From IMG/VR virus record IMGVR_UViG_3300030339_000028: a stretch of 20,000 nucleotides of DNA; one strand, written 5' to 3'. This DNA is from an uncultured virus (IMG/VR IMGVR_UViG_3300030339_000028) (taxonomy: Duplodnaviria; Heunggongvirae; Uroviricota; Caudoviricetes). The notes below the pieces were generated by a model. That model worked only from the letters and a program-made list of their open reading frames with translations, did not search any database and was not told the DNA's origin. Every line of letters begins with the position of its first letter. Positions within the stretch are counted from its first letter, which is position 1. Made by a program: the position numbers and the translations under genes. Shown here in pieces: positions 10,447-14,538 of this stretch.

Positions 10447-10475
10447 TTTTGTAAGTTTTTATCAATTTATACCGA

Positions 10476-10505
10476 CAAAACCCCCTACCCTTTCGAGTAG
10501 GAGGC
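10476..10505 (-). terminator. Terminator/pause-like hairpin with GAAA tetraloop
   Basis: GCCTCCTACTC-GAAA-GGGTAGGGGGT followed by TTTG (short U tract). Confidence 0.55.
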
Positions 10506-10544
10506 AAACCATAAAGGAAAACTTACGGAAAACCGTTATGGTTT
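10506..10544 (-). ncRNA. Hairpin displaying a loop antisense to the early-gene start motif
   Basis: AAACCATAA-C-GG-[TTTTCCGTAAGTTTT]-CC-T-TTATGGTTT. Loop segment CGTAAGTTTT is the perfect complement of AAAACTTACG. Confidence 0.55.
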
Positions 10545-12286: not shown

Positions 12287-12946
12287 CTATTTCTTTGATG
12301 TTTTTGCTTCAACCTTTTCTTCTTTCTTAACAGCTTGTTCTTTCTTGTCAAGTACGGCTGGAGTCTTTGCAGCACGTTTCCGAGCGATGTTCATATAAAT
12401 CGCAATTCTCGGGGTAATAAACTTCATGTCAGTAACACCTTTCAATCCGTATCCGGCAACGTAAGCAGCAATCGTTTCTTTGCTGTCCTCTTTCCAACCT
12501 TGTGCATGACAAAACTCACCGAGCTTTTCCATCGAAGTAATACTGTTGATGTATTTACCAGCATTATCAGCTTTCTTTGCTTTAACCGTCTTGCCTTCTT
12601 TCACAGCCTTGTCAGCCTTTGCAGCTTTAGCCTTAGCAATTGCAGCCATAACCCCTTTCGGTGTTTCTTTCGTAGCTTCTTTAGCCGAATTCACTTTGTC
12701 TTTTAACTCCGGATTAACCTTTGCAGCTTTTTCGCTTGTCTGTGCTACAATAACCCGTTTCCGCAGTTGTGAACCTGTTTCACCTTCTTTTGCGATAACA
12801 ACTTTGTGTTCAACTTCTGCTTTTGGAGCAGTAGTCACTTTCTTTGCTTGTTTTGCTTCCAATTCAATGGCAGCTTCGATAGCCCTTTGTTCAGCACTGA
12901 CGTTCAGAACCTTCTGAAGATTCTTTTTCGATTTCTTGTTTTTCAT
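12287..12946 (-). CDS. Lys/Ala-rich basic protein (219 aa), paralog of 14653..15237
   Basis: Histone H1-like K/A composition plus the shared domain AYVAGYGLKGVTDMKFITPRIAIYMNIA. Confidence 0.8.
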   Translation of the reverse strand: MKNKKSKKNLQKVLNVSAEQRAIEAAIELEAKQAKKVTTAPKAEVEHKVVIAKEGETGSQLRKRVIVAQTSEKAAKVNPELKDKVNSAKEATKETPKGVMAAIAKAKAAKADKAVKEGKTVKAKKADNAGKYINSITSMEKLGEFCHAQGWKEDSKETIAAYVAGYGLKGVTDMKFITPRIAIYMNIARKRAAKTPAVLDKKEQAVKKEEKVEAKTSKK

Positions 12947-12983
12947 TCTATAAGTTTTTTTTGATTACAGCAATATTGCTGAG

Positions 12984-13029
12984 TTCTGGAGGAGGGACTC
13001 GAACCCTCCCTAACTAGAACCGTTCCAGA
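12984..13029 (-). ncRNA. tRNA-like minihelix (acceptor stem plus T-arm, no anticodon arm)
   Basis: TCTGGA-ACGGTTCTAGTTAG-GGAGGG-TTCGAGT-CCCTCC-TCCAGA-A; canonical T-loop; 6+6 = 12 coaxial bp. Confidence 0.65.
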
Positions 13030-13030
13030 T

Positions 13031-13192
13031 TTAATTTGTACTAACTTGAGATTCTTTAATCAACTTCTTGTTTGTTTTGGTAGCAACCTCAGGGGTTATT
13101 TCCTGTACTGCTTTCTTGTCAGCCGCCTTGTTCAAATGTCCACAAACAATAGCAACCTTCTCATCCATAGTCAATTCTTTTTGTTTTACCAT
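13031..13192 (-). CDS. Hypothetical basic protein (53 aa)
   Basis: Likely start is MVKQKELT at 13192, downstream of the promoter at 13235-13266. Confidence 0.65.
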   Translation of the reverse strand: MVKQKELTMDEKVAIVCGHLNKAADKKAVQEITPEVATKTNKKLIKESQVSTN

Positions 13193-13234
13193 AATCTTGA
13201 TTTTAGTCAATGTGTACTGCTGCAATAATTACTG

Positions 13235-13266
13235 TAAATGTACGGTGGTGAAAAACAATATCCAAA
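13235..13266 (-). promoter_or_regulatory. Bacteroidota-type early promoter
   Basis: TTTG (13266-13263) - N20 - TACATTTA (13242-13235). Confidence 0.6.
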
Positions 13267-13338
13267 TGGTATCAAATATATTTTTGCTGTCACTCGTAGA
13301 TTCTTTTTTGAGCACTGGTTTGTCAGGAAATAATTAGA

Positions 13339-13614
13339 TTAAAACCAATCTTGGTATATTATTTGTCCTCCGTATCTGTTATTGACACTTTCAATAATCT
13401 TAAAACCTATAAAATGCTGAACATTTTCTAATTGGGCAGCTCTAAGCTCTATATCAACAACTTGATTAAATAGAGATTTTCTTGCATCTAATACAAATAC
13501 ACCGTCAGTGCCTAAAGCATCTATTGGGTATTTTTCTTCTTCACTAAATATTGGAGGAATAGAACCTTCCACATACCCAGTACTCATTTTTAAAAATTGA
13601 CAGTACCTTTTCAT
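13339..13614 (-). CDS. Hypothetical protein (91 aa)
   Basis: Contains LGTDGVFVLDAR; start preceded by AAAAAACTTACAAG; lies immediately downstream of the hammerhead. Confidence 0.75.
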   Translation of the reverse strand: MKRYCQFLKMSTGYVEGSIPPIFSEEEKYPIDALGTDGVFVLDARKSLFNQVVDIELRAAQLENVQHFIGFKIIESVNNRYGGQIIYQDWF

Positions 13615-13632
13615 CTTGTAAGTTTTTTAAAT

Positions 13633-13682
13633 GTCTAAGACGCTTCACAGCGTTTCTGTCACTAAGACGTCATCGGTTAGAC
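13633..13682 (-). ncRNA. Type I hammerhead ribozyme (variant core)
   Basis: GTCTAA [CCGATGA] C-GTC-TTAGT-GAC-A [GAA] ACGCT-GTGA-AGCGT C^ TTAGAC. Stem I is 6 bp, stem II 3 bp, stem III 5 bp with a GNRA loop; GUC cleavage triplet. Deviations are U4C and a C.A pair at 10.1/11.1. Confidence 0.75.
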
Positions 13683-13683
13683 T

Positions 13684-13860
13684 TCAAAGTATAGCTAGTA
13701 AATCTGTCCAAGTGACTTCCTCATCGGGTTCTATTCCGACGATTAGTTTCTGATTATCTAATCGCTTTAACAGCACGTCCATCCGTTCTTCGGATATCTT
13801 ACCTTCCTCAAATCTTTCGAGGATGATTTCCCTCTTGGCAATATATTCACTCCATTTCAT
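13684..13860 (-). CDS. Hypothetical protein (58 aa; not in ORF track)
   Basis: MKWSEYIAKREIILERFEEGKISEERMDVLLKRLDNQKLIVGIEPDEEVTWTDLLAIL*. Confidence 0.7.
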   Translation of the reverse strand: MKWSEYIAKREIILERFEEGKISEERMDVLLKRLDNQKLIVGIEPDEEVTWTDLLAIL

Positions 13861-13879
13861 GGTATCTGTTTTTAATAGT

Positions 13880-14050
13880 TTAATAACCTAACCATTCATA
13901 AAGACCTTTTTCTGTGATAATTGTAAGGTCTACTAATTCTACCTCCCACACATCGTGGATAGTATCGTACACAGGGCCTTCAACAAAATTACCGTTCACT
14001 ACAAATCCGTGATCTTGACAGATTTTCTTTAACTTTTCTATTGATGTCAT
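13880..14050 (-). CDS. Hypothetical protein (56 aa)
   Basis: Start is MTSIEKLKK at 14050, marked by the 21-bp motif; ends LYEWLGY. Confidence 0.75.
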   Translation of the reverse strand: MTSIEKLKKICQDHGFVVNGNFVEGPVYDTIHDVWEVELVDLTIITEKGLYEWLGY

Positions 14051-14065
14051 TTTCGTAAGTTTTAA
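14045..14065 (-). repeat. Early start motif copy TTAAAACTTACGAAAATGACA
   Basis: Identical to 12081-12101 and 15232-15252. Confidence 0.9.
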
Positions 14066-14100
14066 CCAGCCGCTGTATTGTGGATGCTGTATATTATACG

Positions 14101-14131
14101 CAAATGTAGAGTGATTGTTACACATATCAAA
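14101..14131 (-). promoter_or_regulatory. Bacteroidota sigmaA early promoter
   Basis: TTTG (14131-14128) - N19 - TACATTTG (14108-14101), an exact consensus match. Confidence 0.75.
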
Positions 14132-14360
14132 AGGTATCTGCAAAAGAATGCAAATTATCTTTAGGTAAACAAAACTCTGGTAGATTTGATTCTGAGCACT
14201 AGGATTAGGCCTAAAACGAGCAAAAAGGTTCTGCTAAAGAGCACAAAAAGTGCCTCAAAGCAGCATAACACGAATTCGCGCCTGTCATACACTATACTGT
14301 GAAGGCAGTAGTTAGTATTAAAACACTATTCTCCTGCTGAAAACAGCTTGTTTTAAAGCT

Positions 14361-14420
14361 AAAAAAGCTGATGGCATACATTGCCTTATTATTGCATGGG
14401 GCAATGCAATACACATCAGC
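14361..14420 (-). terminator. Terminator-like long hairpin (T3)
   Basis: GCTGATG...CATTGCC/GGCAATG...CATCAGC followed by TTTTTT. Confidence 0.5.
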
Positions 14421-14476
14421 AGTATAATCCACGTTCAAATAGCATCAAAACAGCCTATTCTAGCCGATAACCCCAT

Positions 14477-14538
14477 AAAAAAAGCCATACGTTACCGTAT
14501 AGCCATAAAAAAGCTGCAAAGTATAAACCTTGCAGCTT
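14477..14538 (-). terminator. Two tandem intrinsic terminators (T1, T2)
   Basis: AAGCTGCAA-loop-TTGCAGCTT-TTTT, then GCTATACG-GTAA-CGTATGGC-TTTTTTT. Confidence 0.75.

Follow-up and report, generated by a model that had tools for sequence, protein, structure and literature searches.

In prophages, hammerhead ribozymes have been described that flank short blocks of genes or just one gene, and for some of these copies cleavage is reported both in vitro and in vivo (Perreault et al. 2011, PMC3088659, in the passages available to us). According to the same passages, G10.1-C11.1 is the most conserved pair apart from A15.1-U16.1, a natural hammerhead with a U10.1-U11.1 mismatch is active, and a viroid variant carrying C in place of U4 (Ambros and Flores 1998, cited therein) has 'considerably' decreased activity in vitro and is still infective. 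For a C.A combination at 10.1-11.1, we found no statement in the accessible parts of that article or of the literature retrieved by a search on 10.1/11.1 mismatches. At a broader level, the available portion of a 2019 review (PMC6765202) describes the roles of ribozymes in bacteria and phages as largely elusive, with the processing of polycistronic messages as a suggestion.

Here, we examine an element at positions 13633..13682, minus strand, of a 20,000-nt window, by which we mean the whole stretch of DNA analysed, from an uncultured Caudoviricetes virus (IMG/VR record IMGVR_UViG_3300030339_000028). It shares with the intergenic phage hammerheads of Rfam RF00163 (clan CL00010) and of the available PMC3088659 passages the type I order of three stems, GAAA, a GUC triplet and the A15.1-U16.1 pair; like the latter, it is an intergenic element of a phage operon, with a single small gene on each side. 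Unlike RF00163 members, the window copy has C4 and a C.A combination for G10.1-C11.1, and it reaches no Rfam score. Its C4 is the same core substitution as in the viroid variant mentioned in those passages; that variant, however, belongs to a different hammerhead context, whereas C4 is a recurrent minority in the DNA phage hammerheads described here (5/72), and the window copy, unlike the viroid variant, combines C4 with a 10.1-11.1 mismatch. As in the U10.1-U11.1 hammerheads of PMC3088659, stem II opens with a non-standard pair, which is C.A in the window rather than U.U, and U.U occurs in the element's own family as well (L016_2535 and L170). The element is one more intergenic phage hammerhead, a kind known since 2011 (Perreault et al.), and it adds a rare double deviation.

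Architecture of the intergenic element

The initial annotation had placed a variant type I hammerhead between two genes that it took to be early, with all three stems and the GAAA and GUC core elements correctly positioned, and reading the minus strand from 13682 to 13633 confirms that arrangement. The element and its immediate surroundings comprise the following features:

13633..13682, minus strand: whole type I hammerhead-family element, 50 nt (read from the sequence; sole descriptor match; 62.3 bits with the family covariance model R1)
13677..13682, minus strand: stem I, 5′ strand GUCUAA, pairing with UUAGAC at 13633-13638
13670..13676, minus strand: core strand CCGAUGA (consensus CUGANGA), the C at position 4 being base 13675
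13657..13669, minus strand: stem II, C-GUC-UUAGU-GAC-A, with C.A at 10.1-11.1, three GUC/GAC pairs and loop UUAGU
13653..13656, minus strand: GAAA (G12 A13 A14 A15.1), read from the sequence
13640..13653, minus strand: stem III, ACGCU-GUGA-AGCGU, including the A15.1-U16.1 pair (A13653 with U13640)
13638..13639, minus strand: predicted cleavage site, after C17 (13639) of the GUC triplet, placed by hammerhead geometry
13633-13638, minus strand: stem I, 3′ strand UUAGAC, read from the sequence
13684..13860, minus strand: upstream 58-aa gene (ORF list; no PHROG or Pfam family)
13339..13614, minus strand: downstream 91-aa gene (ORF list; ATG at 13614-13612; no PHROG or Pfam family)
13615..13638, minus strand: 24-nt leader of the 91-aa gene after the predicted cut, A-rich, with AAAACUUAC at 13626-13618

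Along the minus strand, the order is stem I, CCGAUGA, stem II, GAAA, stem III, GUC and stem I again, which is that of type I, and the alignment to R1 covers this three-helix order from model position 1 to 52. GAAA is accompanied by the A15.1-U16.1 pair and by a cleavable NUH triplet, GUC. In the core strand, five of the six specified CUGANGA letters match, U4 being replaced by C, and C13669.A13657 stands where the G10.1-C11.1 closing pair is expected; both deviations noted at the outset (C for U4 at 13675, C.A at 13669/13657) are real. Apart from position 4, all core letters are intact, as are the three stems. The claims on placement also stood: the element starts 1 nt past the upstream gene's TGA (13686-13684), and a cut at the predicted site, between 13639 and 13638, would leave the 24-nt leader with AAAACUUAC at the coordinates given above.

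Homologs, covariation and chance

We used a relaxed type I descriptor, just loose enough to admit the candidate, which allows at most one core mismatch and a 10.1-11.1 mismatch and demands at least five pairs in stem I, at least three in stem II and at least four in stem III plus the A-U pair. On both strands of the window, it gave exactly one match, the 13633..13682 element; on 5,113 dinucleotide-preserving shuffles, it gave three (~6e-4 per window), one of which had stems as long as the element's. Since ~250,000 windows were scanned, this chance rate alone is unconvincing: the motif is simple enough for many false matches to arise over so large a scan, and the window copy has no Rfam match, both of which would suit a fortuitous resemblance to a hammerhead in an ordinary intergenic hairpin. 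It is homology that settles the matter against chance. The element scores 62.3 bits (E 3.4e-15) with R1, related phages carry syntenic hammerheads, and 31 of 43 contexts of its stem III 18-mer are full hammerheads; such homologs rule out chance resemblance provided that they are themselves hammerheads, and we regard it as scarcely credible.

Rfam gave no matches on the whole window at gathering score; on the 201-nt stretch 13560-13760 at E<=10, it returned three unrelated weak matches and no hammerhead, and RF00163 (Hammerhead_1) at E<=10 gave none in the 30.8-kb record G001, which contains the window. The initial annotation had anticipated that standard models may miss the element, as they did. 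This silence says little about the window copy, because RF00163 at gathering score recovers 2 of at least 37 parsed family copies from 20 loci; most of the parsed copies have consensus cores, and the two found both have a GUCC/GGAC stem II. Gathering score is reached by L006 and L008 at 34.2 bits (cut-off 34) and by L014 and L029 at 35.9 bits. Rfam's type I model is drawn too narrowly to take in the phage family to which the element belongs.

Searches of GenBank phages by blastn with 13300-13950 and with the 56-nt element returned no match, and the 5′ half of the element (25-mer) has no exact match in viral contigs. The 24-nt 3′ half occurs exactly in three viral loci: L007, which shares stems I and III with the window copy and has the consensus core CUGACGA and a G10.1-C11.1 stem II, and L006 and L008, which have C4 with a standard stem II (G10.1-C11.1 in L006). 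An 18-mer pattern comprising GAAA, stem III and GUC only, and leaving the core, stem I and stem II unconstrained, gave 68 matches at 66 loci in viral contigs, in 43 distinct contexts. The 31 contexts with full type I architecture comprise 24 with a consensus core, 4 with an extra U after A9, 2 with C4 and 1 with C4 and A.A; the other 12 are not type I by the parse used. A second pattern, consisting of the stem I end, the core with Y at position 4 and GAAACG, matched at least 114 loci. Among the matches listed, 96 were distinct, of which 32 had a proper 3′ half (30 with U4, 2 with C4) and 64 had none; a recurrent group within these 64 was rejected as a conserved protein-coding gene, marked by third-position variation, rather than a ribozyme. 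Altogether, at least 72 distinct type I hammerhead sequences were parsed from viral contigs, window copy included, and loop UUAGU recurs in 4 of 72.

Three further observations concern the make-up of these matches. A sub-family with an extra U between A9 and G10.1 is represented by L010, L011, L013, L030 (about 1474-1545) and L021:265-321. On the minus strand of L015, at ~1501-1518, the same 18-mer stands in a different permutation, with a closed stem I hairpin followed by CTGATGAG, and has the appearance of a type II hammerhead whose stem III is that of the type I family. At L023 (~1455-1524), the hammerhead directly follows a stretch resembling a tRNA T-arm and 3′ end (gggttcaaacccccactca), which suggests a tRNA-hammerhead junction.

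The family alignment A4 contains 71 sequences and leaves out the window copy. Both-sided changes occur in 11 of its 14 pairs, namely all six of stem I and three of four in stem II, and the covariation score is 0.636, against 0.140 for shuffles and 0.026-0.089 for slid partners. Stem covariation in homologs, which had been named beforehand as a test of the reading, is thus found in stems I and II. Because pairing was a requirement of the descriptor, the paired fraction of 98.4% in A4 is inflated; no such inflation applies to the variety of pair types. Likewise, the GAAA columns are invariant in A4, and both the search patterns and the descriptor required GAAA. R1, the covariance model built from A4 and hence without the window copy, scores the element within the range of family members (38.4-73.4 bits), and the next best match in the window has 11.2 bits; part of the element's score arises by construction, because the homologs were retrieved with window-derived patterns and then filtered by the pairing-demanding descriptor. 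Covarying homologs, the family-model score and the hammerheads in the operon of related phages together support the original reading as a variant type I hammerhead. By homology, the element is a real member, by descent, of a phage type I hammerhead family.

Core deviations, folding and possible decay

The parsed family resolves into the following combinations of position 4 and the 10.1-11.1 pair:

Consensus core, G-C at 10.1-11.1: 62/72 parsed sequences
C4, G-C: 3/72 (L006, L062, L123_1479)
U4, U.U: 2/72 (L016_2535, L170)
U4, C.A: 2/72 (L108_1481, L116)
U4, A.A: 1/72 (L172)
C4, A.A: 1/72 (L071)
C4, C.A: 1/72 (window copy)

A 10.1-11.1 mismatch occurs in 7 of 72 sequences, and among the 71 homologs, 65 have G-C and 6 are mismatched. 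U4C is the sole core substitution among the 72, even though a single mismatch at any of the six core positions would have passed the descriptor. In the five C4 copies, the rest of the core is unchanged, the stem II sequences differ, and stem I pair 2.5-1.5 is U-A, A-U, G-C, C-G and, in one case, C.A; since these copies may share ancestry, they do not amount to five independent events. Both deviations occur together in two sequences, the window copy and L071, which have in common C4, the GUC/GAC stem II and A11.1. The stem I of L071 differs from that of the window copy by two compensatory pairs, a pattern that suggests that the fold was kept after both deviations arose; common ancestry of, or exchange between, the copies could weaken this argument.

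Folding calculations are less favorable to the window copy than to most of its family. For the 50-mer, the hammerhead fold has -11.2 kcal/mol against a minimum of -12.6, and within 66 nt of context, -12.7 against -16.4 kcal/mol. In contexts of 121 and 201 nt, stem I has a pair probability of ~0.01, its strands having other partners; of the three stems, the minimum-energy folds keep the stem III hairpin alone. Within the family, the hammerhead-fold energy is among the weakest (median -15.35), the gap to the minimum is the sixth largest of 72, and the minimum fold is the hammerhead fold in 51 of 72 copies. We also looked for a tertiary partner of loop II. Over the 16 nt that follow stem I, its complementarity does not exceed that of permuted pairings (933/1000 at least as high), and for the 5′ flank, 93/1000 permutations are at least as high, so that a contact of loop II with either flank is not supported; as no loop-loop or pseudoknot contact was found for loop II, the family here may differ in this respect from the hammerheads of PMC3088659 and RF00163.

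These results bear on whether the element is an inactive relic, in which U4C and C.A have abolished useful cleavage and which persists as a 3′-end or intergenic hairpin or has simply not yet decayed. Both deviations fall at positions that the available passages of PMC3088659 describe as highly conserved, U4C lowers activity in vitro according to the same passages, stem II is weak, the hammerhead fold is not the minimum-energy one, Rfam has no match on the window copy and the double deviation occurs in only two of 72 sequences, all as would be expected of a relic. Random decay, however, is not expected to leave U4C as the sole core substitution in the 72 parsed sequences, nor does it fit with the intact remaining core letters and three stems, with the two compensatory stem I changes of L071 beside the same double deviation, or with an 81-bp cassette kept at 1-3 differences in a second context with diverged flanks. 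On balance, we consider decay to a relic unlikely, though it retains appreciable weight.

Our preferred reading, to which we assign a probability of about 60%, is that cleavage of the operon transcript after C13639 persists in this element, at a slower pace than consensus copies would reach. A rate below theirs is probable because U4C, the C.A at 10.1-11.1 and a three-pair stem II coincide, and the energy gap to the minimum also counts against efficient cleavage.

Operon context, leader and gene starts

The 58-aa and 91-aa genes on either side of the element belong to a replication-gene operon, in which 4.4 kb, with further small genes, separate the element from the helicase downstream, and a scan for promoters and terminators gave nothing notable at the element. 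The 91-aa protein has a single homolog, P0002, at 60% identity, and its N-terminal half resembles hypothetical proteins from two cultured phages. With the 91-aa protein and P0002 as queries, no loci were recovered from viral contigs and none from genome contigs; the metagenome contigs L003 and L004 are identical copies, with no variation across the spacer, and L005, a partial metagenome match to the protein query, was set aside as unrelated.

Two relatives of the window's phage are L002, the one recovered with the helicase as query, with a helicase 59% and a primase 53% identical, and L062, with a helicase 45-55% identical. Both carry a single hammerhead in the same operon, on the upstream side of the helicase, and the same AAAACTTAC leader and an ATG come after it. 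The L002 hammerhead, at the very end of that contig, combines a consensus core with a GUA triplet and a stem III that differs, and that of L062 has C4 with a standard stem II. R1 gives exactly one match in each of records G001-G005.

Placement ahead of a gene start is a family trait. The leader measures 24 nt at the element against a family median of 25 nt, and an ATG-opened frame lies at most 60 nt downstream, on the coding strand, in 69 of 72 parsed copies. This fixed spacing of ~25 nt before ATG sets the family apart from the hammerheads in the available passages of PMC3088659, in which no such statement was found, and it would suit a function in producing a leader that is short, defined and free of structure.

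The leader motif is not confined to the hammerhead. Across the minus-strand operon, AAAACTTAC, often longer as AAAACTTACGAAAATG, stands 3-5 nt before the ATG of many genes, at the following sites:

15250-15242, 14063-14055, 13626-13618, 12958-12950, 12099-12091, 11473-11465, 10459-10451 and 6190-6182, minus strand: AAAACTTAC gene-start motif

The genes bearing it mostly have no Shine-Dalgarno sequence, and at one mismatch or fewer, the motif has 28 matches in the window against 12.8 +/- 3.4 in shuffles. AAAACTTAC is a phage-specific gene-start signal, its possible reader being, e.g., the ribosome, a regulator or a nuclease.

Several neighboring features are described here in their own right. 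The next intergenic slot contains a tRNA-like minihelix (12988-13029, minus strand), directly after the TAA of a 52-aa ORF and before the AAAACTTAT leader of a 219-aa gene. It consists of a six-pair acceptor-like stem (TCTGGA/TCCAGA) around a T-arm (GGAGG-GTTCGAGTC-CCTCC), with a second hairpin, CAGCAATATTGCTG, next after it. Its fold has -22.7 kcal/mol (z -2.2), ARAGORN called no tRNA there, and Rfam gave weak matches confined to the T-arm portion of its tmRNA and mascRNA models. It may be a processing signal for RNase P or RNase Z that serves here as the hammerhead does in its own slot, one upstream.

Within 10447-10536, the exact antisense of the leader motif, GTAAGTTTT, occurs at 10526-10518 on the minus strand, ~60 nt upstream of the AAAACTTAC (10459-10451) that precedes a 77-aa gene. 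In the minimum-energy fold (-32 kcal/mol, z -3.9, with 0/200 shuffles as stable), GTAAGTTTT and AAAACTTAC pair with each other and enclose a G+C-rich hairpin, followed by UUUU. According to this model, the fold could be a leader-sequestering structure.

Contigs from the RNA-labelled runs X22 and X24, which come from other habitats, match the window at 13033-13326 and 14162-14464 with ~85-97% identity and cover nothing else of 12900-14500, so that none lies on the element. Because they match there, the region of the 52-aa ORF and that around 14300 may be conserved beyond the window's phage, as the sequence matches suggest.

Membership of the family by descent, the architecture, a conserved position and the repeated occurrence of each core change are shown here, and the self-cutting reading can be set out from there as a sequence of predicted steps. 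The element is a descendant of a widespread phage type I hammerhead and lies within the transcript of the replication-gene operon. During transcription, stems II and III would fold locally and stem I would close, and the RNA would then cut itself after C13639. The upstream message, that of the 58-aa gene, would be left with a 2′,3′-cyclic phosphate end and the folded ribozyme body on its 3′ end, and the downstream message, that of the 91-aa gene, with a 5′-OH and a 24-nt A-rich leader carrying the AAAACUUAC gene-start motif. Such a cut would therefore uncouple the two cistrons in stability and translation. Cleavage itself, its rate and these consequences for expression are predicted from the sequence.

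The same unit can also be viewed at the level of DNA. It recurs outside the window as follows:

13608..13688, strand not specified: 81-bp cassette retained in a second genomic context (contigs of peat runs X7 and X14)

The X7 and X14 contigs match the window only there, differing at 1-3 letters, and beyond either end their sequence is unlike the window's; the intergenic unit is therefore present in a second gene context. A hammerhead-leader-ATG cassette of this kind might act as a recombination boundary for the swapping of small early genes, with cleavage secondary or irrelevant. Promoter-stem-loop cassettes of T4-type phages have been proposed as such boundaries. Besides the X7 and X14 contigs, two observations point the same way: L006 and L007 carry the identical 24-nt 3′ half, and by blastp none of the ORFs beside it in these two loci matches any ORF of the window, and the genes between hammerhead and helicase differ among the window, L002 and L062. 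Recombination nevertheless leaves unexplained the compensatory stem changes and the invariant catalytic letters across 71 sequences. Such a role is also compatible with either a ribozyme or a relic, and is an addition to the ribozyme reading more than a replacement; taken as the explanation of the element, we hold it to be very improbable.

A more speculative extension, which we regard as improbable, would join the two levels: the hammerhead-leader-ATG unit might be a portable gene-start cassette that both cuts the transcript and, as DNA, provides the site of crossover when phages of soil and peat exchange small early genes. The copies with C4 and a mismatch would then be deliberately slow or condition-dependent cutters (responding, e.g., to pH through a protonated A.C pair, or to a metal ion) that set how far the downstream gene is uncoupled.

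Returning to the reading of the element as a slow self-cutting ribozyme, its wider meaning lies with the family. A large ribozyme family, mostly invisible to the Rfam type I model, stands at a fixed distance before gene starts of uncultured phages. Within it, U4C and a non-standard 10.1-11.1 pair are naturally joined in the window copy and in L071, which makes these two a test case for the combination. If the double-deviation copies cleave, the core consensus used in searches would be too strict; if they do not, they would be an example of ribozyme decay in place. The constant ATG spacing and the common leader motif, in turn, give a concrete handle on the idea that such phage ribozymes process mRNA.
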